Part shown: positions 2,823 to 28,180 of the stretch, one piece after another | Numbering within the stretch: the first letter of the stretch is position 1 | Layout: the number at the start of each line of letters is the position of its first letter | IMG/VR virus record: IMGVR_UViG_3300021516_000014 | Span: 1-28,180 of that record | Direction: 5' to 3' (one strand) | From: a virus | Taxonomy: Duplodnaviria; Caudoviricetes | Length of the DNA stretch: 28,180 bases | The notes under the pieces: generated by a model | Database searches by the model: none | What the model was told of the DNA's origin: nothing | Seen by the model: only the letters and a program-made list of their open reading frames with translations | Position numbers and translations under genes: made by a program

Positions 2823-4183
2823 AGAGATTTGCGTTGACGTGCTTGCCAGCGGAAGAAGGCCCAGCCTAGCTTATATCCCCGCTGCTTGGCGAGTGCTCGG
2901 AAGTCGTCGAGCGTTTTGCATTTGCCTTCTTCACGGCGATCTTCGCGTTTCTTGGAGATGTCTTCGATCGACAGGCGCTGAAGCTCACCATCGACCTCCT
3001 CGATTTCGCGAGCGGCTATCTCACGCTGCGATCCGCACTGAGGGCAAACGGTTCCTGCAAAAATCGCGAAGCACTTGGAGCACTGCTTGGTTTCGACGAG
3101 CGAGGATTTCTTCAATCGCTTCTCGCGCCCGCTAAGGTCCCAGTCGCGCTCCTGCTCAGCGAGTCCATGGCGGAGACAGTTCCCAACGTGATCGAGGATG
3201 ATCGCGTTAACCTTGCCCGGGTACGGCCGCAGGGCCCGGCCCACCTGCTGAAGGTGCATGGAAAGAGACTGAGTTGGCCGAAGCAGGATGGCCGCGTTCA
3301 CGGCCGGCAGATCGAATCCCTCGGAGATAAGTTCGCAGGAGGTAAGGACCAGGATTTTACCAGCGGTCAGATCATCCACGCGCTGCTTTCGGACCTCGGG
3401 ATCTAGGGTTCCGTCGATGCTAGCAGATGGGATTCCGCAAGAGTTAAACGTATCGGCGACGTGCTGAGCGTGAGCGACCGATATACAGAACGCGACGGCC
3501 CGCTGCCGGTTACAGAATCTCACGTAATGAGTCACTGCATCGCCTGTGATGCGTGGCGTATCGACGATCTCCTCGGTCTCGGAGCGATCGAAGTCGCCGG
3601 CAATCGTGTGGACCTGAGACAGATCGACTGCCTCACGAGGCGCGTAGTACACGGGCTGCGCCAGGAATCCGTTGTCGATGAGCCACTGGACAGACGGACC
3701 CATGACCATGCGGTCAAACATGGCCCCAAGACCCTTGCCATCGAGGCGCTCTGGGGTCGCAGTCACGCCGATAAACTTGGCGGTCGGCCATGCTGCGAAC
3801 ATCTGGACGTAGGACTTGGAGACCGAGTGGTGCGCTTCGTCGATGATAACGAGATCCGGAGCGGGTATAGTATCCAGGCGACGGGCTAAGGTCTGGATCG
3901 AAGCGACCATGGCAGGCTGAGTGGACGTGGATTTACCTGCCTGAATGAAGCCATGCGGAACGCCGACGCGCTTCAGAGTGGCGCTGATTTGATCGAGGAT
4001 TTCGCGGCGATGCGCGATAATGATAACGCGAGACCCCCGCTTGAGGACCTGGGACGTGATGTAGGAGAAGAGGACTGTTTTGCCGGAGCCAGTCGGGCTC
4101 ACCGCCAGCGGGCGGTTTGCTCCAGATCCGAACGCCCCTCTGATATCGTTTGCCAGCTGGTTTTGGTAAGGCCGGAGTTCCAT
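2819..4183 (-). CDS. Superfamily 2 DEAD/DEAH helicase with C-terminal Zn ribbon
   Basis: Likely start MELRPYQ at 4183. Motifs SPTGSGKT, IIDEAHH, TATP, SEGFDLP and QQVGRALR, plus CSKC...CPQC. Confidence 0.95.
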   Translation of the reverse strand: MELRPYQNQLANDIRGAFGSGANRPLAVSPTGSGKTVLFSYITSQVLKRGSRVIIIAHRREILDQISATLKRVGVPHGFIQAGKSTSTQPAMVASIQTLARRLDTIPAPDLVIIDEAHHSVSKSYVQMFAAWPTAKFIGVTATPERLDGKGLGAMFDRMVMGPSVQWLIDNGFLAQPVYYAPREAVDLSQVHTIAGDFDRSETEEIVDTPRITGDAVTHYVRFCNRQRAVAFCISVAHAQHVADTFNSCGIPSASIDGTLDPEVRKQRVDDLTAGKILVLTSCELISEGFDLPAVNAAILLRPTQSLSMHLQQVGRALRPYPGKVNAIILDHVGNCLRHGLAEQERDWDLSGREKRLKKSSLVETKQCSKCFAIFAGTVCPQCGSQREIAAREIEEVDGELQRLSIEDISKKREDRREEGKCKTLDDFRALAKQRGYKLGWAFFRWQARQRKSL

Positions 4184-4193
4184 CGTGAGCCGT

Positions 4194-4238
4194 AGGCTGC
4201 GTTCTGAGGCTTGACGTGTCAAGCATAAGCTGCACACT
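4194..4238. promoter_or_regulatory. Overlapping divergent sigma70-like promoters centred on palindrome GCTTGAC-gt-GTCAAGC (4209-4224); candidate RHH operator
   Basis: Plus strand: TTGACG 4211-4216, 16 nt, CACACT 4233-4238, then ATG at 4245. Minus strand: TTGACA 4222-4217, 17 nt, CAGCCT 4199-4194, then ATG at 4183. Confidence 0.6.
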
Positions 4239-4244
4239 GCCGGC

Positions 4245-4436
4245 ATGAAAAACACGGTTCGAGTGAGCTACAGGTTGCCGATTGAAGTGGCGAAGATGCT
4301 TGAGGATGAAGCGGTGCGTGCCCGGCGCACGAAGACGGCGGTGCTGATTATTGCGATCGAGGACCACGTTCTGCGATGTGATGATGAACGGTCGGATTGG
4401 GTTGAAAAACCCGTTGACACTAAGAAGAAGCGGTAG
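4245..4436 (+). CDS. Ribbon-helix-helix (CopG/Arc-like) transcriptional regulator
   Basis: 63 aa. Alternating strand VRVSYRLP, helix IEVAKMLEDEA, turn RRTKT, helix AVLIIAIEDHV. Confidence 0.8.
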   Translation: MKNTVRVSYRLPIEVAKMLEDEAVRARRTKTAVLIIAIEDHVLRCDDERSDWVEKPVDTKKKR

Positions 4437-4442
4437 AACGAT
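4414..4442 (+). promoter_or_regulatory. Putative promoter for the capsid operon, inside the 3' end of the RHH gene
   Basis: Perfect -35 TTGACA at 4414-4419, then 17 nt, then AACGAT as a weak -10. Confidence 0.45.
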
Positions 4443-4450
4443 ACCTCCAC

Positions 4451-4643
4451 GACGCATAGCTTGGTTTCGTCAACCAGGCGCGAACTGGGCGCGTAATTCC
4501 AGTTGGCCAAGAGTGCTGAAGAGCACTCGCCGGTTCCACGGCTCGGACTCGCCACCGAGGTTGGATTGATGGTCTTAGGACCTGCAATCTGCCTCGTGTC
4601 TCGGAGGGGTAGGTGAAGTAAACCCCGGGATAGGAGAGCCAAT
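4451..4643 (+). ncRNA. Candidate structured RNA / 5' leader of the major capsid gene (unknown family)
   Basis: Six back-to-back stem-loops fill the longest intergenic gap in the window. Example: GAGTGCT-GAAG-AGCACTC at 4511-4528. See findings. Confidence 0.55.
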
Positions 4644-6239
4644 ATGGCCAGTGGAAATGTAATCAGCTGTAAGCAGTTTCAGTCTTTTCTTGTCTCGCAG
4701 GAACCTGTGTATGACAAAGAAATCCTCAAGGATATCCGCCCGTTTGACGGGTTGATCGGATACTACAACACCGGATCGTTCGACGCGTATTCCGGCACCA
4801 CTCACACGTTTGACCGCTTCAACAGCGTGTTCCCGAATGTGACTGGCGCTTGGGAGAATCCTACGGGCGCCGCCTGTACTGGAACGCCTTGCGACACGGA
4901 AGAGAACAAGATCGGTTGGGGCTTCACCCGCAATACCTACTCGCTTGAAAAGCAGGCGTGGGGTTCGGATCTGTTGTGCTTCGACCAGATTATGACGAAG
5001 ACGAAGGCCAAGGAGCACTTCCGTCAGATCATCGACGACGTTCTTCGCCCTGCGACGAACTGGATCACGACCTACTACCTCCAGCGTAAGGCGATGGAGC
5101 TGTCTGGTTACGATGCTCTCAGCAACACTCAACCTGGAGCTTTCGCAGTTGTTCCTGGTCTTCCGGCGATTGCCTTCTCTTGGGTTGGCACTGGTTACTC
5201 GGTACTGCGTGTAACCGACACTGCTGCCGCTCCCATTGCTTTTGCTACGGTTGGAATGTTGACTCCGGACATCCTCCGTAGCCGCGTGACCCGTCAATAC
5301 TTCCTGGGCGCCGTTCAGGCCGGTAAAGATGGTTACGACAGTCTCCAGCTGCACACCGACAAGGACACCTTCCGTTACCTGTCCAAGGAAAATCCGTTGC
5401 TAGTAAGTTCCTGGCGTTTCGGTGAGTTCGCTCCCGCTGCCAAGGAGTTCTACAAGTACGGCTTCATGGGATACGTCGGCGACTTCATGGTGAAGGTGCT
5501 GCAATTCCCGCTGCGATTCGTTTCGACTGCCACCGCTGGTAATTACCGATTGGTTCTTCCCTATCGGAACGTTACAGCGACCCAGGGTATCCGATCTGAG
5601 TTCAACCCTGATTACAACGCGGCTCAGTACCAGATCAGTTACATCAACAACCCGCGTGCGTTGCGCGTGTTGCCGTTCCGCCCTGAGGCCGTAAACCCGA
5701 ATATGCCGTTCCTGGTTCGGGATTACGGTGGTCGCTGGAAGTTTGCGACCAACGACTTGGGTGCAGATTGCTCCGGTAAACCGATCGACAACAGCCGTGG
5801 TAACAAAGGTAAGTTTATCGCCGACTTCCAGTTGGCTGTAAAACCTGAGCATCCCGAATGGCTTGAGGCGATCTTCCATAGGGTTAGCCAAGTGTGCCCA
5901 ATATTTATCGGTGGTTGCGGCGCCGATCCTGGCGAACTCGCTCAAAACTACAACTCTGCGGATCCTGTTTGCCCGCGAGTGATTCAGTTCACGGCGACTA
6001 CTGTCACTGGCGGAACTAACTTTGTGCTGAACGCCAATGCCAGCATCTTGTGTAACGACAATTACATCACAAGTCCTGCTATCAATGCTGCGAATGTGGC
6101 GGCCTTGGTGGTTGCAATTCAAGCGGCTTGGACTGCCGAGTTTGGCGCTGGCTCTGGAACCTGGAGCGTTGTCTCTGGCAACTTGATCCAAATTAGCGGA
6201 ACTACCTGCGACAACGTCACGTTGGAGTTCTCGATTTAA
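4644..6239 (+). CDS. Putative major capsid protein with C-terminal extension domain
   Basis: 531 aa with an SD-like AGGAGA upstream, strongly biased codons and an immediately following terminator. No other MCP candidate exists in a window that has portal and terminase. It resembles capsid proteins of uncultured aquatic phages by recall; the HK97 fold was not verified. Confidence 0.72.
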   Translation: MASGNVISCKQFQSFLVSQEPVYDKEILKDIRPFDGLIGYYNTGSFDAYSGTTHTFDRFNSVFPNVTGAWENPTGAACTGTPCDTEENKIGWGFTRNTYSLEKQAWGSDLLCFDQIMTKTKAKEHFRQIIDDVLRPATNWITTYYLQRKAMELSGYDALSNTQPGAFAVVPGLPAIAFSWVGTGYSVLRVTDTAAAPIAFATVGMLTPDILRSRVTRQYFLGAVQAGKDGYDSLQLHTDKDTFRYLSKENPLLVSSWRFGEFAPAAKEFYKYGFMGYVGDFMVKVLQFPLRFVSTATAGNYRLVLPYRNVTATQGIRSEFNPDYNAAQYQISYINNPRALRVLPFRPEAVNPNMPFLVRDYGGRWKFATNDLGADCSGKPIDNSRGNKGKFIADFQLAVKPEHPEWLEAIFHRVSQVCPIFIGGCGADPGELAQNYNSADPVCPRVIQFTATTVTGGTNFVLNANASILCNDNYITSPAINAANVAALVVAIQAAWTAEFGAGSGTWSVVSGNLIQISGTTCDNVTLEFSI

Positions 6240-6255
6240 TCGGGTCGATAACAAC

Positions 6256-6284
6256 GGGGCTCTCCTTCGGGAGGGCCCCCTTTT
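6256..6284 (+). terminator. Rho-independent terminator after the capsid gene
   Basis: GGGGCTCTCC-TTCG-GGAGGGCCCC stem with a cUUCGg tetraloop, followed by CTTTT. Confidence 0.85.
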
Positions 6285-6373
6285 GAGGTGCTGGTAGCCA
6301 CCCGGAGCGTCCGGGATGCTAGCAGCCTCTCACCAAGACCTCTTACCAAGACTTCAAAGAAAAGGATTTTACG

Positions 6374-6637
6374 ATGTACGGACAAATGATGGGTAAACGA
6401 AAGATGGACGGCATGGGCCGCATGAGTTCCGAGGTTGAAACCGTCGAGTTCACTCCTCCCAAAGAATTAAAACTGGAAGGCGATTCAGGAACCGCAATGG
6501 TTGACTGGCGCATGACACCGCGTGGAACCGTTGAGATCATTGGATTCGACGGCATAACGCTTGGTGAGACTGGCAAGCAAGACATGGAAGAGGACGCTGC
6601 CGAAAACGAAATGGATGACATGGAGGAGGAAGCCTAA
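6374..6637 (+). CDS. Small acidic hypothetical protein
   Basis: 87 aa, Met-rich N-terminus, Asp/Glu-rich tail. AAGGA upstream. Confidence 0.7.
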   Translation: MYGQMMGKRKMDGMGRMSSEVETVEFTPPKELKLEGDSGTAMVDWRMTPRGTVEIIGFDGITLGETGKQDMEEDAAENEMDDMEEEA

Positions 6638-8867: not shown

Positions 8868-9275
8868 ATGACCATCCTCTGGATCATCGAACGCCTTCTC
8901 GTTAAGCCCACCGAAGGCTCCCTCACCGATGTCGTAATCACCGCCGATTGGCGATGCAACGGCACTCAGGATCAATACAGCGGCACCTGCTACGGCTCCT
9001 GCTCGTTCCAGCCGCCGAGTGGTGAGTTCACGCCTTACGAAGACCTGACCGAGCAGCAAGTCCTAGACTGGTGCTTCGCCAATGGAGTCGATCAAGCGGC
9101 TATTGAGGCGAACGTGACGCAGCAGATCAACGACCAGATCAATCCGCCGGTGATTGCTCCGCCGTTGCCGTGGGTGCCGGTGCCGCCTCCTGAAGTCGTT
9201 CCTCCGTTGATCGAGCAGGCTGTGCCGGTTTTGGTTGCGGAGCCTGTGGTTATCGCTGACGCTCCCTCCGCATGA
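8868..9275 (+). CDS. Fibre-associated hypothetical protein
   Basis: 135 aa with DVVITADWRC...FTPYEDLTEQQVLDW...PLPW, a pattern typical of genes following S74 fibres in aquatic phages. Pro-rich tail. Confidence 0.8.
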   Translation: MTILWIIERLLVKPTEGSLTDVVITADWRCNGTQDQYSGTCYGSCSFQPPSGEFTPYEDLTEQQVLDWCFANGVDQAAIEANVTQQINDQINPPVIAPPLPWVPVPPPEVVPPLIEQAVPVLVAEPVVIADAPSA

Positions 9276-9421
9276 TCAAGATCGAACTCACTCAGGAGCA
9301 GGCCAACAGCCTCCTCCAACTCATCGACATTGCCATCAAGGCCGGTGGCTACCAAAACGCCAAGGTGGGCGTTCCTTTGGCCGACATCATCCTCGCAGCC
9401 GCACAGCCTAAATCCGAGTAA
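9272..9421 (+). CDS. Small hypothetical protein (49 aa)
   Basis: Below the ORF-track cutoff: MIKIELTQEQANSLLQLIDIAIKAGGYQNAKVGVPLADIILAAAQPKSE. ATGA overlap upstream, TAATG overlap downstream. Confidence 0.75.
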   Translation: MIKIELTQEQANSLLQLIDIAIKAGGYQNAKVGVPLADIILAAAQPKSE

Positions 9422-9591
9422 TGGAACCAACGAACAGCAGCACCAGCCCTGGACTTAGCCTAGCAGCAGCGGCAGGTGCCACCGCTGTTTCGTTTATTCC
9501 AGTACTGACCGACTGGGTTCGCCTTATCACCGCGCTGATTGGCTTGGCCTGCGCCATCTATGCCGCATATCGATTATTCCGCTCAAAATGA
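9421..9591 (+). CDS. Small membrane protein, holin/antiholin-like (56 aa)
   Basis: MEPTNSSTSPGLSLAAAAGATAVSFIPVLTDWVRLITALIGLACAIYAAYRLFRSK: two hydrophobic segments and a basic C-terminus. Translationally coupled on both sides. Confidence 0.65.
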   Translation: MEPTNSSTSPGLSLAAAAGATAVSFIPVLTDWVRLITALIGLACAIYAAYRLFRSK

Positions 9592-9785
9592 AAAACACGA
9601 AAACAACTCTTGCCGGTGTAGGTGCCATTCTCGTCGCTGTCGGTGGTGCCCTTCGGGCTGCCTTCGACGGTGACGCAAGCACCAACATCGACATCGCTTC
9701 GACCATCGCCGCGGTCACTGCTGGCATTGGCCTTATCATGGCCAAGGACGCCAACGAAAAGACTCCTGTCGTTCCTCCGGTTTGA
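9588..9785 (+). CDS. Putative holin (2 TM)
   Basis: 65 aa. KTTLAGVGAILVAVGG and IAAVTAGIGLIMAKDA hydrophobic helices. Confidence 0.65.
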   Translation: MKNTKTTLAGVGAILVAVGGALRAAFDGDASTNIDIASTIAAVTAGIGLIMAKDANEKTPVVPPV

Positions 9786-9949
9786 ACTGGATCTACCAAC
9801 TCGTGAAGGCTCTCCTGGATTTTCTCCGGGAGACGCCTGCACCAAAAGTAGAAGATGGAAATGCGCCAAAGCCTCTCAAATCTGATCTGGCTGCTCGTGT
9901 TGCCAATCTGCCTGGGTTGCCAGCAGACAAAAGTAATCCTCGTTCCTAG
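9782..9949 (+). CDS. Putative i-spanin-like / amphipathic small protein (55 aa, TTG start)
   Basis: TTGA overlap with the holin stop. MNWIYQLVKALLDFLRETPAPKVEDGNAPKPLKSDLAARVANLPGLPADKSNPRS. Overlaps the lipoprotein gene in another frame, as Rz/Rz1 do. Confidence 0.5.
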   Translation: MNWIYQLVKALLDFLRETPAPKVEDGNAPKPLKSDLAARVANLPGLPADKSNPRS

Positions 9950-10079
9950 CGGTGATCCGGTGATGCTAGCAGAGCCCGTCCGCGCTCACGTCTACGCGTT
10001 TGACAAGGACGGCAAGCTATCTGGCCCGAGTCGGGTTACCCTTCCAGCTGGGTGGTACGTACTGCCGAAAGCCAAATGA
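9855..10079 (+). CDS. Putative o-spanin (Rz1-like lipoprotein)
   Basis: Signal peptide LIWLLVLPICLG|C with a lipobox-like Cys and a Pro-containing mature part. Start could be 9855 or 9861. Confidence 0.65.
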   Translation: MEMRQSLSNLIWLLVLPICLGCQQTKVILVPSGDPVMLAEPVRAHVYAFDKDGKLSGPSRVTLPAGWYVLPKAK

Positions 10080-10321
10080 TCACCTACCGAGGCCAGAAAT
10101 TTGCCGGGTACAACAAGCCGAAATCAACCCCGGGGGCCTCGAAGAAGTCTGCTGTGTTGGCCAAGGAGGGCGGTCAGGTGAAGCTCGTGCGCTTTGGTGA
10201 TCCGAACATGAGCATCAAGAAGCACATTCCAGAGCGTCTTAAAAGCTTTCGTGCCCGGCATGGTTGTGACACACCGGGCACGAAGTTATCTGCGAAGTAT
10301 TGGAGTTGCCGCGCCTGGTGA
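10076..10321 (+). CDS. Conserved basic phage protein of unknown function (RFGDP...RKSFRARHxC...YWSC type)
   Basis: Start MITYRG at 10076 with ATGA overlap. KLVRFGDPNM...KSFRARHGCD...AKYWSCRAW is a widespread phage DUF pattern. Confidence 0.8.
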   Translation: MITYRGQKFAGYNKPKSTPGASKKSAVLAKEGGQVKLVRFGDPNMSIKKHIPERLKSFRARHGCDTPGTKLSAKYWSCRAW

Positions 10322-11569
10322 TCAGTACGCCGACGGCAACTCGTCGATCGCGTCTTCAGCGCTCTTAGGAGCGATGCGCGTCGCAGTCGAGGTTCCCTCA
10401 CCCTGACCGGGTTCAGAGGATCGGACCTTTCCAACCTTCTTCTCCAGCTCCGCCACCTTTTGCTGAAGACGGATTACTCGCAGGCGCTCACGGCCGTAGG
10501 CCCGAGCACGTAGTGCAACCTGAGCCTGAGCCTTCGTAATGAGGTCAACCTTGTCCTCGTAGCCCATGTCAGCATCGACGCCCTCGCCTTTCAGCGCGAT
10601 TCGGATCAGCCGATCACTCTCGTCCAGGAGCTTGTTGCCATCATCGTCACCATCTTCCCTGCCGAACAGCTGCGGGTGGCTCTTTTCGTAATCCGAGAAC
10701 TGCGATTCAAACAGCTCACGCGAGCGAGACTGACGTCCTTCTACCTGCTTCGATCGCTCAACCTCACGCTGCGCTCCCTTCTCCTTCCATTCAGCGATGG
10801 ACTTGTCGCGAGACTGAGTGAGTTCGAGTAACCGACGGCGGTGGGCCATGATCTCGGGCGCAGCTGGCCCGAACGTCTCCTGAGCGATGATCGCGGCCTT
10901 GGCGACCGGCACATTTAGAATCGCCATGATGTCATGGTGACTAGCGTCGCGCTCAGTGCCATCGGCATCAGTGACGCGGATTCCGTCAATATCGCCCAGG
11001 GCGGTCTGCCACGCTTCGCGCAGAGGGGTCTCGTACTTCTGCTTGTACTCACCGGAACGCGTGTAGTTCAGATACCGCACCTCGGTGTCCAGCTCCTCGG
11101 CGTTCTTCCGGATGGAATCCATCTCGGCCTTCAGCGACTTGGTAGCCTCTTCAACTTCCTTCCGAGTGCCTTCGGACCTAGCGCGCTCAAGCTCAGAGAC
11201 CTTGGCCGCGAAATCGTCGCGCTCTTTCTTGGTCAAGTCGTACTGCTCACGGAACTGCTTGATAGACGTGGGCTCAGGCTTGGCGGGCTCAGCCTTAGTG
11301 GCCGGCGTTGGTTCATCCTTCTTGGCAGTAAACTTATCGAGGTTGAAGAAATCCTCGTTCTTGGGCTTAGCAAGGTCAGCAGGGGCAGGCGCCTGAACTT
11401 CTGGCGCGGATACCGCAGGCGCAGGAGCTACCTCTTGAGGAGCCTGCTGGGACTGTGATCCCATTGGGTTGTCTAGCCCACTGCCTTCAATGGCGTCGAT
11501 TCCCGCAAATGCGTCAGCGTAATCCGCCCCGCGATCAGTTGGAGCATCAGGTGATAATAGGATTCTCAT
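10322..11569 (-). CDS. Putative capsid scaffolding protein
   Basis: 415 aa with an acidic Pro/Ala-rich N-terminus and long coiled-coil stretches. Lies two genes downstream of the portal, the usual podovirus scaffold position. Confidence 0.55.
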   Translation of the reverse strand: MRILLSPDAPTDRGADYADAFAGIDAIEGSGLDNPMGSQSQQAPQEVAPAPAVSAPEVQAPAPADLAKPKNEDFFNLDKFTAKKDEPTPATKAEPAKPEPTSIKQFREQYDLTKKERDDFAAKVSELERARSEGTRKEVEEATKSLKAEMDSIRKNAEELDTEVRYLNYTRSGEYKQKYETPLREAWQTALGDIDGIRVTDADGTERDASHHDIMAILNVPVAKAAIIAQETFGPAAPEIMAHRRRLLELTQSRDKSIAEWKEKGAQREVERSKQVEGRQSRSRELFESQFSDYEKSHPQLFGREDGDDDGNKLLDESDRLIRIALKGEGVDADMGYEDKVDLITKAQAQVALRARAYGRERLRVIRLQQKVAELEKKVGKVRSSEPGQGEGTSTATRIAPKSAEDAIDELPSAY

Positions 11570-14100: not shown

Positions 14101-14493
14101 TCAGATTGCTTTTCGTTCCTGCGAAATCCAGCATTTATCAGGCATTTCACGATCGCCTAGGTAACTCAATGGCACCCAGACCTTGAGCTTCAGGTAACAG
14201 CCGCAGACTTCGCAGGTGCCAGCATTAGACTCACCTTGAAGGATCATAGCCATGTCGTGGCGCAGCTGCTCCTGCTCAATGATAACTTCAGCGACAGTCT
14301 TCTCGATCGCATCTGGCTTGGTGGGTTTGTTATGCAGGCAGTGCAGACACGTATCAAGACGATGCTGCGCTACTGAGCGATCAACGGGAATGCCACCATC
14401 GCCCAGCCATTCCGCAAGAATCCTGACGCCTTGCGCTGTGTTTTTAACCCTTTCCACCGCACGAGCGACAGCCTGATACCCTTGGTTGAGCAT
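14101..14493 (-). CDS. Hypothetical Cys-motif (putative Zn-binding) protein
   Basis: Likely start MLNQGY at 14493. RLDTCLHC...CEVCGCYLKLKVW...KCW. Confidence 0.7.
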   Translation of the reverse strand: MLNQGYQAVARAVERVKNTAQGVRILAEWLGDGGIPVDRSVAQHRLDTCLHCLHNKPTKPDAIEKTVAEVIIEQEQLRHDMAMILQGESNAGTCEVCGCYLKLKVWVPLSYLGDREMPDKCWISQERKAI

Positions 14494-15158: not shown

Positions 15159-16931
15159 TTAGGAATAGGTTAGCGAATGTTCAGTATCCATCGTGCGACG
15201 CTTATCTGACAGACGTGTCAGCCACTTTGGTGTCTGTCGCTTGACAATACCAACCCCCTGCCCGCCTGCAATCTCAAATCCCGTTCTGCGAGCCATTTCG
15301 AGTGCGACCACAAAAGAGTCCCATAAATCAGGGGATCGGCCCATGCGTTCCTTGGTTTTGTGCTTAGGCTCCACGTCGATCAAACCAGTGCGGGAGATTC
15401 CCCATTCGCGCATCGACCCTTCCTCGGCGACTTCCCGGGGAAGTTTCCTCAGCTGCTTGGATTCGATCAGCAGGCGCGACGAATACCAGAGAGCCGTGAC
15501 CATCTTGCCGTAGGCTTCACGCTCAGTCTTCGGATCACCTTTCCGAACAGGGCGATCCGTCGGCCGGCCACCAAACTCGATCGGCACCACCTCGGGCGAC
15601 CACAGGCGGGCGAACGCAGACATTAGCGTGCCGCGTCCGGTAGAATCGAATCCCACCTGATCAGGCGGGATATTCCGTTGCTTGCAGTACAGCAGCACGT
15701 ACTCAGCGATCTGCTCCTCGGCTTGTTGGGCTTTGACGGCCGTCACGGGGATTACGATCGGAGCTTCAGCGAATGCTAGCACGATGCGTCCAGTAGCGTC
15801 TGGACCGTACTGAAGGTCGGTCATAACGCATCGGTCACCACCGATGCCTGAGTACGCTGCGTCGATCCCGATGATTCGCGTGATCTTGTCGGCGCCCTGC
15901 CACATGATTTCATCGAACGCCTGGTTTTGCTCGCACAGCGACATGGTCACCACGCGCCGTGTACCGCCGTCTCGGGGCAGCAGCCCGAGGTTCATCATCG
16001 AGAACTGCAACGAGTCTCGGCCGTAGTAATCCAGATCCGCCTGAATCTGCTCCGGCGTGATGATGCCTCGATACGGATTGGTGCCTTTCGGGAACTTCGC
16101 GTTCGGCGTGTCGTACCCGCACAGCTGAACAGCAACCCCTCCTGGAGCCCGCGTTCTCCAGGTGCGTGTTTGCTCCAGATACTCAATGCCTTCCCAGCCG
16201 CCCATCGTGGAATGCGGCTCACAGACAACCCCAAGCGCGTCGTTGCGGTCCTTGGGATTCCCCATTGCGATCAGCTTGAACTCAGGATTCTTGCGAAGGT
16301 TAGCGACTGAATCGAGGAACCCCCGGCTCATCAGAGACGCCTCGTCTGCGATCAGCATCACTCGATCGTTCTTAAGTCCGACGTAGTTCGAGAGACCAAC
16401 AAACGTACCGCCGACCTTGCACGCTACACCGATGATTCCGTCGCGGAAGTCTTGCGCCTCGGCGTCTTGGTCAGAACTGGTAAGGATGAACCGGCTCTCA
16501 ATAACGCGCCCTGGCAGCCATTCCCGGCGAGCCTTGGCCTTGTTGTGCAACTCCTTGATCGAGCCCCAGATTCGCAGCTGAAGACCCTCACGCGTCGTTG
16601 ACGACATGATGATCGAGGTGCCAGTTGGGTAGATGTAGAACGTGCAGAGCCCGAAAGCTGCGGAGGTGTAGGTCTTGCCAGATGATCCTGGTCCCATGAT
16701 TCCAACCTCTTGATTTTCCGCGAAAGTCTTGATCAGCAGGTCAGACCAGATGTGCCAATCGAAGTGAGGCCAGAGCGCCGTCATGGCTGCTTTGAAGTGA
16801 TGATATTTCCCGCATCCGTACTTGACGCCGCCGGACATTATGTAACCGCCACGACGAACCATTTCAGCCTCGATGAGAAAGCGGTCTTTAGTACGCCACG
16901 GTATAGACAGGTAATCTGCGCTCTCATTCAT
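15159..16931 (-). CDS. terL: Terminase large subunit
   Basis: Likely start MNESADY at 16931. Walker A GPGSSGKT, Walker B MLIADEAS, coupling motif MGNP, nuclease motifs IIGIDAA, FDSTG.G and RSPDLWDS. Confidence 0.9.
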   Translation of the reverse strand: MNESADYLSIPWRTKDRFLIEAEMVRRGGYIMSGGVKYGCGKYHHFKAAMTALWPHFDWHIWSDLLIKTFAENQEVGIMGPGSSGKTYTSAAFGLCTFYIYPTGTSIIMSSTTREGLQLRIWGSIKELHNKAKARREWLPGRVIESRFILTSSDQDAEAQDFRDGIIGVACKVGGTFVGLSNYVGLKNDRVMLIADEASLMSRGFLDSVANLRKNPEFKLIAMGNPKDRNDALGVVCEPHSTMGGWEGIEYLEQTRTWRTRAPGGVAVQLCGYDTPNAKFPKGTNPYRGIITPEQIQADLDYYGRDSLQFSMMNLGLLPRDGGTRRVVTMSLCEQNQAFDEIMWQGADKITRIIGIDAAYSGIGGDRCVMTDLQYGPDATGRIVLAFAEAPIVIPVTAVKAQQAEEQIAEYVLLYCKQRNIPPDQVGFDSTGRGTLMSAFARLWSPEVVPIEFGGRPTDRPVRKGDPKTEREAYGKMVTALWYSSRLLIESKQLRKLPREVAEEGSMREWGISRTGLIDVEPKHKTKERMGRSPDLWDSFVVALEMARRTGFEIAGGQGVGIVKRQTPKWLTRLSDKRRTMDTEHSLTYS

Positions 16932-16932
16932 C

Positions 16933-16969
16933 TTGCGGGAATCCTGCTGTGGCCCTTCAATCGGTTCAA
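16933..16969. promoter_or_regulatory. Putative overlapping divergent promoters between terL and the tail operon
   Basis: 43-nt gap. Plus strand: TTGCGG, 17 nt, TTCAAT (16933-16961). Minus strand: TTGAAC, 17 nt, CAGGAT (16969-16941). Confidence 0.45.
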
Positions 16970-16974
16970 GCGTC

Positions 16975-19014
16975 ATGGTCGCAGAAAAAAATCGCATAGT
17001 AGACGGCCTCCTCACCGCTGAAGGTGGGGTGGACAGCGGTTTTTCGCCCTCACTCATTCAACCCAACCAGCTAGCATGGGCGGTGAACACAACGGTGCGC
17101 GGAGGATTTCCTAAAGCGCGGCCGGGGATTTGGACCAAGCTGCTGACGTTTAACGATCCTACGGTGGTCTACAACAACGGGTACTACAACGCTGCGGTCC
17201 AGTCGGCTTTCAAGGAAGGGTTCTTTCAGGGGTGCGGAGCTTACATCAACGACAACGGAGACCCTTATATTTACGCTTCAATCGGAGGAAAAAACTTCCA
17301 GATTGACATCGGAAACAATTTCCTAGTCACAGATCAAACTCCTCAAATTTCAACGTTTTCAGTCAATACACGAGGCCGCGTATCAAATGTGGCAACCTAC
17401 GTATGCGGTGCTCCTCATAACTTGTTTCCTGGCATGGTGGTGCGCCTGCCAGAGCCTGTTGGCGCCCTCTTTACCGAAGGATTCTTCGGCGATTTTGTTG
17501 TCCAGACTATTCCAAGCCCAACAACTTTCACTACCTACAGCCCGGGAGTTGATGCAGGACCCCTTCTCGGACCAAATTTTACTGGCTATTTACTAGCGGC
17601 AAATAATCCGAATGCAGCTCACGTCTACTTTCAGCAAGCGGAGAACTGGCTGATAATTCAAGACGGCCTAAATGCCCCATATCTCTACGACGGAACTTCG
17701 TTTAGACGAGCTGCAAGCGATGAGGTTCCCGTTGGAGGTCCGATGGCTTACGGAAAAGGACGCCTCTGGGTTGCAAACGGATCGGAATACTACGGCGGAG
17801 ACTTGGTCTACGGTGACCCTGCATTTGGAAGAAACTCTGTCATTCGGTTTACCGAGAACACATTCATCAATGAAGGCGGCGCTTTTGCGGTCTCAAATGG
17901 ACCAATCACGGGGTTGGCATTCGCGGCCAACCTGGACACGTCCCTTGGAGACGGCGACCTGCTGGTGTTTACCCCGACCGCCACTTACGCGTTTAACGCG
18001 CCTGTGGACCGGGATGTTTGGAAGGATCTCAGTTATCCAATCCAGCGATTCGCGCTCCTGAACTTTGGATCGTTCAACCACGAATCCATCGTGCCGGTAA
18101 ACGGCGATCTATTCTTCCGCGCTCAGGACGGCATCCGATCGTTGATCTACGCTAGACGCGACTTCACTGAGTTTGGAAACACACCGATTAGCCGGCAGGT
18201 TACTCGCGCAATAGCTTACGACACGGAGTTTTACTTAACGGCTGCTAGCTCCGTGAACTTCGATAACCGGATGCTGATGACCATTCAGCCTCAGAAGATT
18301 AACGGTAGAGGTATCGTGCATCGAGGACTCGTAGTGTTGGACTTTGATCTTGTTTCTGGAATGGGTCGTAAATTGCCGCCGGCATGGGAGGGTGTATGGA
18401 CCGGAGTGGATGTATTCCAGATGCTTACGATCCGAATCCAAAAACAGGATCGTTGTTTTATGTTTGGGTTGAATCAAGGAGACATTGGACTCTTTGAGGT
18501 CACTAAGAACGGCCAGTTCGACTTCGATGGATACGATGATGTACCGATCGACTGGACCATTGAGACCCGCTCACTGACATTTGCTGAACCATCTAACAAG
18601 AAACGCCTTGTCAGCGCCGAGCAGTGGTATGACCAGGTGATGGGCAATATCGAAGCCAAGGTCTACTTCAAGGCCAACGAGGGCGAGTGCTGGCAACCAT
18701 GGGCTGAGATCAAGGACTGCGCCAAGTACCGCAACTGCGAGCCAGGCGAGATTTCCTGCCCCCCTGCGGTGATCAACTGCCAGGAGGTAAAATACTACCA
18801 GCCCCCTGCAAGATCACGTATTGCCCTACCGCAGCCTCCAGACAAGTGCGACGTGCAGACCGGGGGATTTACCCGCGATGGCTACGAGTTCCAGCTGCGC
18901 TACGTGAACACCGGCCGATTCCGCCTCAAGCGGGTGGCTATGGTCGCTCAACGCCTTCAAGAGGATATTTACGGCGATCTCAGCCGCGTCGCCTGTCCGC
19001 TACTCTCCGAATAG
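16975..19014 (+). CDS. Putative tail nozzle / tubular protein B (P22 gp10, T7 gp12-like beta-propeller) with inserted FCCH-like domain
   Basis: Likely start MVAEKNR at 16975, 679 aa. N-terminal GGVDS..SP.LI..NQ..WAVN, propeller-like strands (YGKGRLWVA, GDLFFRAQDGIRSL, FDNRML) and a C-terminal FQLR...GRFRL sandwich. Confidence 0.7.
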   Translation: MVAEKNRIVDGLLTAEGGVDSGFSPSLIQPNQLAWAVNTTVRGGFPKARPGIWTKLLTFNDPTVVYNNGYYNAAVQSAFKEGFFQGCGAYINDNGDPYIYASIGGKNFQIDIGNNFLVTDQTPQISTFSVNTRGRVSNVATYVCGAPHNLFPGMVVRLPEPVGALFTEGFFGDFVVQTIPSPTTFTTYSPGVDAGPLLGPNFTGYLLAANNPNAAHVYFQQAENWLIIQDGLNAPYLYDGTSFRRAASDEVPVGGPMAYGKGRLWVANGSEYYGGDLVYGDPAFGRNSVIRFTENTFINEGGAFAVSNGPITGLAFAANLDTSLGDGDLLVFTPTATYAFNAPVDRDVWKDLSYPIQRFALLNFGSFNHESIVPVNGDLFFRAQDGIRSLIYARRDFTEFGNTPISRQVTRAIAYDTEFYLTAASSVNFDNRMLMTIQPQKINGRGIVHRGLVVLDFDLVSGMGRKLPPAWEGVWTGVDVFQMLTIRIQKQDRCFMFGLNQGDIGLFEVTKNGQFDFDGYDDVPIDWTIETRSLTFAEPSNKKRLVSAEQWYDQVMGNIEAKVYFKANEGECWQPWAEIKDCAKYRNCEPGEISCPPAVINCQEVKYYQPPARSRIALPQPPDKCDVQTGGFTRDGYEFQLRYVNTGRFRLKRVAMVAQRLQEDIYGDLSRVACPLLSE

Positions 19015-26834: not shown

Positions 26835-28180
26835 ATGGCAATCGAGATCGACTTTGGACGCGAGCTGGGTCGGTTAGCGTTCCCGGATGACATTACGGAT
26901 GAGCAGGCTCAGTCCTACGTTCGTGAAAATTATCAAGCGATCCGACAAGGACTTCTTGGTCAGCGGCAGGAAGAGCTAGCAGCTGAGACGCAATCACAGG
27001 AAGCGGCAAAGTACCGCGCCGGCGATTACGGGACGTTGGAAACTATTGGGGCAACCATTGCTGAGCTTCCGAAGGCCACGCTTAGCGGCCTTGGTCAAGC
27101 CGCAAAGGGGTTTGCGAGGGTTTTTGAGTCAGGTGATCCATTCACTGAATCAACTCCTCAGGAACAACGGAGAATGGTTGCTCAAAGTCCGTTTACTACG
27201 GGGGGAGAGAATTTAATTTCAGCTGGTCAGGCAATGCCTTCTTTGCCTGGAGTCGAAGAGAGTATCCCAGCTCAGATTGCCGGCGGCGTAGGAAGTACGC
27301 TGTCTGTACTTCCAGGTGCGCTTTTAGCGGGTCCCGTTGGAGCAGGCGCTCTCTACGGATTGTCCGCAGGTGAAGCTGGAGCTGAAGATGCCCGCAGAGT
27401 TATTAACCGACGCATCGCTGAACGGCTTGCAGCTGGTGATTCACAAGGAGCTGAGGATCTTCAAGCGCAGGCGTCGCAACTGGAATCTCAATCGTTCCTC
27501 CTAAATGCTGCCATCGGCGGTGTGTCAGAGGGTGTGCTTGGTGTCGCAGGAAAAATCCGTTACGGAAAATCCAATATCGGCGGCGTTGGAACTCGCCTCG
27601 CCGAACGAATGATTCCGAAAGCTGCTAGCTTGCGGACTCAGAACATGATTCGAGGCGGCGTAGAGGGTGTCGTTACAGAAGGTCTTCAGGAATCATTGGA
27701 GCAGTCCATGGGCAACATGGCTGCCAAGGTTACCTACGAACCTGAGCGCGGTATCATGGATGGCGTAGCGCAGGCTGGATTTATTGGCGCTGCGACCGGC
27801 GGACTTGTTGGTGGCGCCATTGGATCTAAGCGGAATCCAAACCTCGCCACTGCAAACGCAATCGCCGAGGCCACGGGCGCAGATCCCGCAAACCCGCTGC
27901 CGCGTTCAACAGCAACTGTTTCTGGTCTACAAGACGGGCCTCAATCCATGGGACCGATCGACATCGAGCCCGAGATCACGCCGGAAGATGTCATGCGGAA
28001 GTCTCAGGAGGCCGGCTTAGCTGGTCAGGAGGAAGTGGTTACTGAGCCCGTCCCGAAAGTTACACCTGTGCCTGCACAGCCGCAGGTTGATGTCGTTCGT
28101 TTGGATGACCTCCGCAAAAAAGCTAATGCTGGCACGATTAATCCAGATGAGCTTGCGGAGTTGACCTTAATGCATCAGAC
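26835..28180 (+). CDS. Large internal virion / ejection protein, N-terminal part (runs off the window)
   Basis: Not in the ORF track. Hand translation MAIEIDFGRELGRLAFPDDITDEQAQ...IAGGVGSTLSVLPGALLAGPVGAGALYG...EGVVTEGLQESLEQ...GAATGGLVGGAIG. Gly-zipper hydrophobic segments and EG..E..Q motif typical of large podovirus core proteins. Confidence 0.75.
   Translation, partial: MAIEIDFGRELGRLAFPDDITDEQAQSYVRENYQAIRQGLLGQRQEELAAETQSQEAAKYRAGDYGTLETIGATIAELPKATLSGLGQAAKGFARVFESGDPFTESTPQEQRRMVAQSPFTTGGENLISAGQAMPSLPGVEESIPAQIAGGVGSTLSVLPGALLAGPVGAGALYGLSAGEAGAEDARRVINRRIAERLAAGDSQGAEDLQAQASQLESQSFLLNAAIGGVSEGVLGVAGKIRYGKSNIGGVGTRLAERMIPKAASLRTQNMIRGGVEGVVTEGLQESLEQSMGNMAAKVTYEPERGIMDGVAQAGFIGAATGGLVGGAIGSKRNPNLATANAIAEATGADPANPLPRSTATVSGLQDGPQSMGPIDIEPEITPEDVMRKSQEAGLAGQEEVVTEPVPKVTPVPAQPQVDVVRLDDLRKKANAGTINPDELAELTLMHQ

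Follow-up and report, generated by a model that had tools for sequence, protein, structure and literature searches.

Stem-loops at the 5′ terminus of bacterial mRNAs, such as those of ompA and T7 gene 10, stabilise the messages that carry them, and in the SAM-II/V, preQ1-II and fluoride riboswitches a pseudoknot domain is followed by a competing helix near the ribosome-binding site (RBS). The RNA leader described here, located upstream of a phage capsid gene, differs from the pseudoknot riboswitches in having no conserved ligand-pocket bases, no Rfam match and a structural gene downstream. As in the stabilising stem-loops, in the form given in the available part of the source (PMC3997798), its 5′-most bases are predicted to be paired, however they pair into a hairpin loop, forming a pseudoknot, and not into a simple stem. 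The gene 32 leader of phages T4, T2 and RB69 likewise carries an H-type pseudoknot in a phage 5′ leader upstream of the RBS (PMC3014915, available part); the present leader has four predicted pseudoknots, one of them at its predicted first bases, and a conserved alternative helix, its region before the RBS is GC-rich and paired (hairpins H5 and H6) among the aligned leaders of alignment A2 and not an unstructured A+U-rich operator, and its downstream gene encodes a capsid protein whereas gene 32 encodes a ssDNA-binding protein. The xrRNAs of flaviviruses and dianthoviruses, for which a block to RNase J1 has been shown, also form pseudoknots between a 5′ strand and an apical loop and undergo a programmed change between two folds, however these RNAs lie in the 3′ UTRs of eukaryotic RNA viruses and form a ring round the 5′ end, in the account given in the accessible text (bioRxiv 10.1101/262683), whereas the RNA described here is a phage 5′ leader.

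Conserved structured leaders before phage head genes have also been catalogued as GP20-a (RF02991), GP20-b (RF03003) and candidates from IMG/VR (PMC10690425). The available part of the last source predicts thousands of IMG/VR RNA candidates, five of them upstream of the PHA00201 capsid gene; these candidates are 29-151 nt long, shorter than the present leader, and neither Pfam nor PHROGs gives a match for the capsid protein encoded here. Four short core motifs were absent from three of the supplements to that work, as were two motifs and three sample numbers from a fourth, in the portions available, and part of the leader may already be listed there, without a function. No description of the leader RNA was found in the literature searched, most subscription papers lying outside it, and the leader is a real, apparently undescribed RNA family. 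Judged from sequence comparison, what stands out is the pseudoknot at the predicted transcription start together with a covarying two-state core.

The window, that is, the whole stretch of 28,180 nt analysed here, belongs to a linear IMG/VR virus record from an uncultured aquatic phage that is 51% complete. The leader lies on the plus strand between a 63-aa ORF (4245-4436) and a 531-aa ORF (4644-6239). The original prediction took this to be the longest intergenic gap in the window, however at 207 nt it is shorter than 9275-10322 (1046 nt) and 14150-14444 (293 nt) when compared against a set of 25 ORFs, the two longer gaps containing short ORFs that are possibly not real genes. No annotated phage was matched. 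A Verrucomicrobiales label appears on a single homologue and on one of four short contigs; the remaining three are assigned to other phyla, and the capsid protein was not found in 300 other genomes of the phylum bearing that label.

The downstream gene (4644-6239, plus strand) had been labelled a capsid gene from its sequence, and this is borne out by the predicted fold. Sequence searches of PHROGs, Pfam and PDB returned nothing for the 531-aa protein. Its predicted model (mean pLDDT 79) has an HK97-type fold, with the Moo19 and N4 capsids as the best Foldseek matches (E 1e-11 to 6e-11) and a match to the HK97 capsid at E 9e-8; the top match in a viral library was a major capsid protein (E 5.5e-13), and the Atlas capsid clusters score the protein at 0.94. 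The earlier label is therefore right, since the model matches phage capsids, and the product is predicted to be the major capsid protein. Residues 445-531 (window ~5975-6239) make up an additional C-terminal domain, modelled with confidence and distinct from the HK97 fold, that is absent from many homologues, which are ~440 aa long, and is possibly a built-in decoration domain. A terminator-like hairpin follows the capsid stop codon at 6256-6283 on the plus strand (10 bp, UUCG loop, short T run), with a second long imperfect hairpin directly after it (6256-6330 in all), upstream of the ORF at 6374. By the same rule a terminator-like hairpin lies 3′ of the capsid gene in only 4 of 44 homologues, and a monocistronic capsid mRNA was rejected as a rule for the family.

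Elsewhere in the window, the terminase large subunit gene (15159-17057, minus strand; phrog_2 match, E 7e-11) is transcribed in the direction opposed to that of the structural block, and as called it collides head to head with a long ORF that has no annotation (16933-19014, plus strand), the two overlapping. In PHROGs the open-ended ORF at 26835-28180 weakly resembles virion RNA polymerase (E 7e-7) and DarB-like proteins (E 9e-6), which may reflect low-complexity similarity. The primase-like region at 1-2000 has a GC content of 64-65% and a GC skew of +0.3, high relative to the rest of the window.

All six hairpins proposed for the leader are present: H1 (4459-66/4472-79), H2 (4483-88/4499-4504), H3 (4511-17/4522-28), H4 (4542-46/4555-59), H5 (4564-68/4585-89 plus 4571-74/4579-82) and H6 (4606-10/4622-26 with an outer extension 4597-4602/4627-32), as is the motif ACTCGCC at both 4525 and 4547. 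The plus strand folds at -85.8 kcal/mol (z -4.33), with none of 200 shuffles as good, and the minus strand gives z -2.73, with 3 of 200 shuffles as good; among 140 tiled 196-nt windows only one, a 69% GC tile, folds lower than the leader. Folding strength and the homologues together support the proposal of a conserved, plus-strand structured RNA. Two-sided changes occur at 6 of 6 pairs in H2 and 6 of 7 in H3, and the stem of H6, which at 4597-4632 (plus strand) has a purine-rich loop and ends just 5′ of the Shine-Dalgarno sequence, passes the partner-strand swap test at p < 1e-5 in 12 lineages. A GGC/GCC extension suggested for H3 finds no support from homologues (swap p 0.13), the GGC beside H3 pairing better with the H4 loop. 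The hairpins stand, but the wiring first proposed for them is mostly wrong, and it misses four pseudoknots, a hairpin at 4530-41, a promoter and an alternative long helix.

That the RNA belonged to no recognisable family also held, since cmscan against Rfam 15 gave no match at the gathering score anywhere in the window, and below that score only two chance snoRNA matches outside the leader (E 2.7 and 4). At 20 homologous loci the same search found only one tRNA, away from the leader; this weak match, on the minus strand at 240-312 of locus L280, lies ~1.7 kb upstream of a distant capsid gene. No second copy of the leader was found within the window by nhmmer, and among leaders below 48% capsid identity nhmmer gave no convincing match to the core (best E 0.027, inside a coding region). 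A 17-nt core pattern occurred in 78 viral stretches, 40 of which were unrelated to the capsid gene and by eye carried no leader features.

Homologue searches returned 41, 78, 4 and 80 loci. The capsid protein is matched at 242 loci, 214 of them with a usable upstream region, which yielded 101 distinct leaders, and 50 dissimilar representatives were chosen from leaders reaching down to 33% capsid protein identity. Alignment A2 holds 57 of the 62 unique leaders with a capsid identity of at least 47%; two truncated leaders (L065 and L226) and three that could not be aligned by eye (L247, L252 and L253) were left out. Approximately 45 of the 57 rows are close relatives, and partner-strand swaps were therefore also run in 10-12 dissimilar lineages. 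Leader L155 was left out of the tests of PK1 and PK2, of the first tests of PK4 and of the comparison of folding energy and RBS opening between the two states described below, truncated leader L251 was left out of the PK1 test, and L081 and L275, whose proteins are cut short, were left out of the capsid tree, a quick tree of 48 rows. In this tree the A2 leaders belong to one capsid clade (SH-aLRT 100) that also contains L247, L252 and L253.

A sigma70-type promoter is predicted at 4414-4442 on the plus strand, with a -35 element TTGACA (4414-19), a 17-nt spacer and a -10-like AACGAT (4437-42), placing the predicted start of transcription at ~4449. A strict promoter scan omits it because the -10 element matches at only 3 of 6 positions. 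Among the 50 dissimilar leaders, 42 have a TTG-type -35 element, matching at 5 or more of the 6 positions, at a distance of 178-276 nt before the capsid start codon, and the promoter call is absent in the other 8. The promoter overlaps the 3′ end of the 63-aa ORF, which is ribbon-helix-helix-like by Atlas features. TTGAC promoter-like sites also stand back to back in this area (4211-4436 on the plus strand, 4222 on the minus strand); the predicted start of the plus-strand site is the ATG of the 63-aa ORF, as in a leaderless message, and the minus-strand site at 4222 is directed toward a helicase gene.

Of the words sampled from the stretch, 25-40% are contained in 18 RNA runs. Four runs were examined as contigs, which carry no start, strand or single-transcript information. 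Run X3 has one contig at 4467-5987 and nothing over 3900-4404, a weak hint that fits a leader joined to the capsid message. The entire stretch is covered in run X1, and in runs X4 and X5 cover begins at 4179 and 4404, upstream of the predicted start; this cover could be DNA or read-through.

The predicted 5′ end of the leader takes part in an H-type pseudoknot, PK1 (4451-4479, plus strand), which joins 4451-54 to 4468-71 inside the H1 loop. When the 42 leaders with a promoter call were scanned automatically, 22 showed a strong H-type pseudoknot whose first base lies 33-41 nt past the -35 element, against 5.9 +- 2.4 of 42 (maximum 14) in 30 dinucleotide shuffles and 2-7 of 42 at seven other offsets between -12 and 59; PK1 is weak or missing in the remaining 20. 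With the hairpin picked blind to the PK1 pairing, the 5′ ends of 39 leaders pair with their own loops at -6.63 kcal/mol compared with -4.48 +- 0.38 kcal/mol when partners are swapped, none of 20,000 permutations matching this value, and the 29 leaders with a capsid identity under 47% give the same outcome. Neither in-place shuffles (-4.44 +- 0.36) nor an untranscribed upstream segment (-4.29) reproduces it. Under one filter a strong pseudoknot follows 14 of 90 other promoter-like sites at these loci versus 15 of 29 capsid promoters, and PK1 is found in every major branch of the quick capsid tree. A second H-type pseudoknot, PK2 (4479-4504, plus strand), pairs 4479-82 with 4490-93 in the H2 loop (swap p 5e-4, 11 lineages). 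Two or three bases upstream of PK1 probably stay unpaired, and these could still suffice for RppH access.

Downstream of PK2, the plus strand can form a double-pseudoknot domain at 4504-4565, termed state A, composed of H3 (4511-28), a small hairpin P3 (4530-32/4539-41), H4, PK4 between 4504-07 and the H4 loop (4551-54), and PK3 between the P3 loop (4535-38) and 4562-65. The same strand can instead form a long helix, termed state B or helix B, at 4556-4596 (4556-61/4591-96 and 4563-68/4585-90, capped by 4571-74/4579-82), which is present in the minimum free energy (MFE) fold. Helix B is incompatible with H4 and PK3 because it uses the 3′ strands of both; of 15 leaders compared, 14 have helix B overlapping H4, and in the last one only PK3 is overlapped. 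A nested-only consensus fold misses most of the core because of these competing folds.

Both states show compensatory change. Across PK1, PK2, P3, H4 and PK3, 94.5% of state A pairs are paired, with two-sided changes at 21 of 31, and helix B is paired in 91.1% of cells, with two-sided changes at 9 of 16 pairs. The swap test gives p 1e-4 for H4 and, for the three helices that were spotted by eye and then tested on those same sequences, p 4e-4 for PK3, p 6e-5 for helix B (12 lineages) and p 0.005 for PK4 in 11 lineages, or 0.037 in 12 when the window is fixed. PK4 is the weakest helix: its register moves from lineage to lineage, so that the MAFFT alignment shows a two-sided change only once. Comparison of homologues thus supports, for the core, two conserved folds that exclude each other, as expected of a riboswitch. 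In 14 leaders, the nested part of state A lies ~13 kcal/mol above B when no pseudoknot credit is given, and stacking in PK3 and PK4 together contributes ~-15 when loop penalties are not yet counted, which leaves the two states roughly balanced in predicted energy. State A can form first during transcription, since it is complete by 4565 and B needs 4585-96. Helix B was rejected as an intrinsic terminator, a clear T6 run following it in only 1 of 15 leaders (L158) and several having no T-rich tail; no conserved U tract was found after it.

The core is absent from L247, L252 and L253, which belong to the same capsid clade, so the switch is dispensable in close relatives. These three appear as replaced leaders within the clade; by eye, L247 has two tandem PK1-type modules and an H4-like loop, without helix B. 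Distant leaders (33-42% identity) share other modules. A knotted-looking GAAG...CUUC-AAAA-CCC motif lies ~100 nt before the start codon in L280, L281, L165, L166, L193, L168, L173 and L272, and in L162, L169, L164, L198 and L276 a hairpin immediately precedes a start region that is U-rich and lacks a clear Shine-Dalgarno sequence; the modules have the look of distinct RNA families that follow a common PK1.

The original prediction also put forward a possible kissing loop and RBS switch. The complementarity between the H4 loop (4549-53) and the H6 loop (4612-16) exists, however the kissing loop drawn from it is unsupported: of its five pairs, one is broken in 16 and another in 15 of the 57 leaders, own and swapped partners do not differ (p = 0.97, 12 lineages), and the H4 loop pairs upstream instead, in PK4. 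The second element, GGCUC at 4540-44 with GAGCC at 4636-40, beside the SD-like AGGAG (4632-36) and the start codon (4644-46) on the plus strand, is likewise complementary and occurs in the MFE fold, however it is kept mainly in close relatives (46-50 of the 57 rows). The 4540-44 strand would be freed to form this pairing in state B, and across 12 lineages the freed strand shows a modest preference for its own start region (p 0.014). For 5 of 6 leaders of the close clade, the RBS is costlier to open in state B than in state A (16.6 vs 14.3 in the window), and among 8 more distant leaders the cost is higher in B in 2, higher in A in 4 and equal in 2. For all 14 leaders B is higher in 7 and A in 4 (2 with longer coding sequence). 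The proposed RBS switch is therefore only weakly supported, its two-state core being conserved and its effect on the RBS having no consistent direction. The segment 4586-96 was also considered as a conserved anti-SD in state A and rejected (swap p 0.15 and 0.91), single cases such as L063 looking strong.

Taken as a whole, the interpretation we favour, which we hold to be evenly poised between right and wrong, is that the RNA acts in cis as the leader of the capsid mRNA: PK1 and PK2 would form a 5′ cap against decay, and the A/B switch would tune initiation, state A being the ON form in the close clade and being maintained by a protein or by folding kinetics. The predicted pairings on which it draws, PK1-PK4, H4 and helix B, are supported by covariation among homologues. 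Transcription would begin near 4449, and the first bases would pair into the H1 loop as PK1, followed by PK2. This cap may hinder 5′-end-dependent decay by RppH and by RNase E or J; RNase E and RppH require single-stranded 5′ ends, for which reason 5′ structure stabilises mRNA, according to the available part of the source (PMC3997798). The double pseudoknot at 4504-4565 would then fold first, and the emerging 4585-96 would extend from H5 and displace PK3 and H4 to give state B. In the close clade, B is predicted to be OFF, freeing 4540-44 to pair beside the start codon, and A to be ON, however this direction is inconsistent in distant lineages. State A would be held by a phage protein or by folding kinetics, either of which is likelier than a metabolite because the domain has almost no invariant unpaired bases. 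A more specific version is put forward tentatively as a possibility: the first nucleotides of the capsid mRNA would be capped by a pseudoknot, and the double pseudoknot after it would be a bistable switch, flipped by a factor of the phage or the host, that gates capsid synthesis.

A purely protective leader, by analogy with the xrRNAs, is somewhat improbable. Here the four pseudoknots would act as stacked nuclease roadblocks with no control of translation, and the A/B alternative would be a folding pathway or a remodelling step linked to degradation. The lack of a conserved direction of RBS opening is consistent with this, as is the fact that PK1 alone is common to the whole capsid family while the modules downstream of it are replaced. 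Strong pseudoknots are also enriched at downstream offsets of 60-149 (8-16 of 33-42 leaders), and the accessible text on pseudoknotted xrRNAs describes them as blocking RNase J1 and able to remodel in degradation (bioRxiv 10.1101/262683). A passive roadblock, however, needs no second, exclusive helix kept by compensatory change, as helix B is.

An unlikely alternative, again by analogy, is a feedback operator similar to that of gene 32, in which excess capsid or assembly protein would bind the core or the H6 loop and stop initiation. The H6 loop (4611-4621) has a conserved purine-rich motif, in which 10 of 12 lineages retain G4612 and G4618, and this motif and the H5 internal-loop bases at 4582-4589 are conserved beyond what pairing explains and are candidate protein sites; for the operator, conserved bases in the H6 loop and at 4582-87 count in favour. 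Autoregulation also has a reported precedent in the P22 scaffolding protein, which is said to regulate itself. The gene 32 leader offers a pseudoknot upstream of the RBS (PMC3014915, available part), however the clade has no unstructured A+U-rich tract between pseudoknot and RBS.

Less probable still is a metabolite riboswitch or self-cleaving ribozyme, with the double pseudoknot as aptamer or catalytic core and helix B as the inactive form. A compact double pseudoknot, a competing helix of similar predicted energy and a position 5′ of the RBS would all suit it, however few loop bases are kept: among the core loop and linker bases only U4549 and C4550 are retained in 12 of 12 lineages and A4554 in 10, so that no set of invariant unpaired bases forming a ligand pocket was found in the 12 lineages. 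The U-C...A loop pattern recurs in PK1 and therefore looks structural. The PK1 loop begins Y-U-C-R in 9 of 10 lineages and the PK4 loop in 10 of 12, matching the YUNR U-turn motif, which speeds RNA-RNA pairing in the available part of the source (PMC8464778); this suggests, from base conservation, that the two loops are one reused structural module, and it speaks against a metabolite pocket or catalytic core. Rfam returned no match, and the strand order and catalytic bases of HDV-like, pistol or twister ribozymes were not found, by Rfam and by comparison with their topologies, the strand order being unlike that of HDV-like or pistol ribozymes when compared by hand. A standalone noncoding RNA cut from or overlapping the capsid mRNA, for instance a pRNA-like packaging or assembly RNA with intermolecularly paired loops, which the original prediction had listed beside the cis-acting leader that is now most likely, is very improbable, since its own promoter, its dense tertiary pairing and the inability of covariation to separate intra- from intermolecular pairs are set against a plus-strand scan of 4000-5000 that found no terminator, in the leader or elsewhere, a contig (4467-5987) that runs into the capsid gene, a terminase large subunit match in the phage and the single copy in the window.

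Two incompatible folds that both covary within one phage leader are what marks out a riboswitch or an attenuator; here they stand before a capsid gene and lack a metabolite pocket, which suggests an undescribed means of controlling how much of the most abundant virion protein is made. PK1 persists throughout the capsid family to protein identities as low as 35%, yet its sequence is hardly conserved at all, and RNA screens that rely on sequence would overlook it; a pseudoknot cap as 5′-end protection of a bacterial mRNA was not described in the literature searched. If PK1 does protect the 5′ end, it would be a small mRNA stabiliser that can be moved from one message to another, and it may be to bacteria what the xrRNAs are to eukaryotic RNA viruses.
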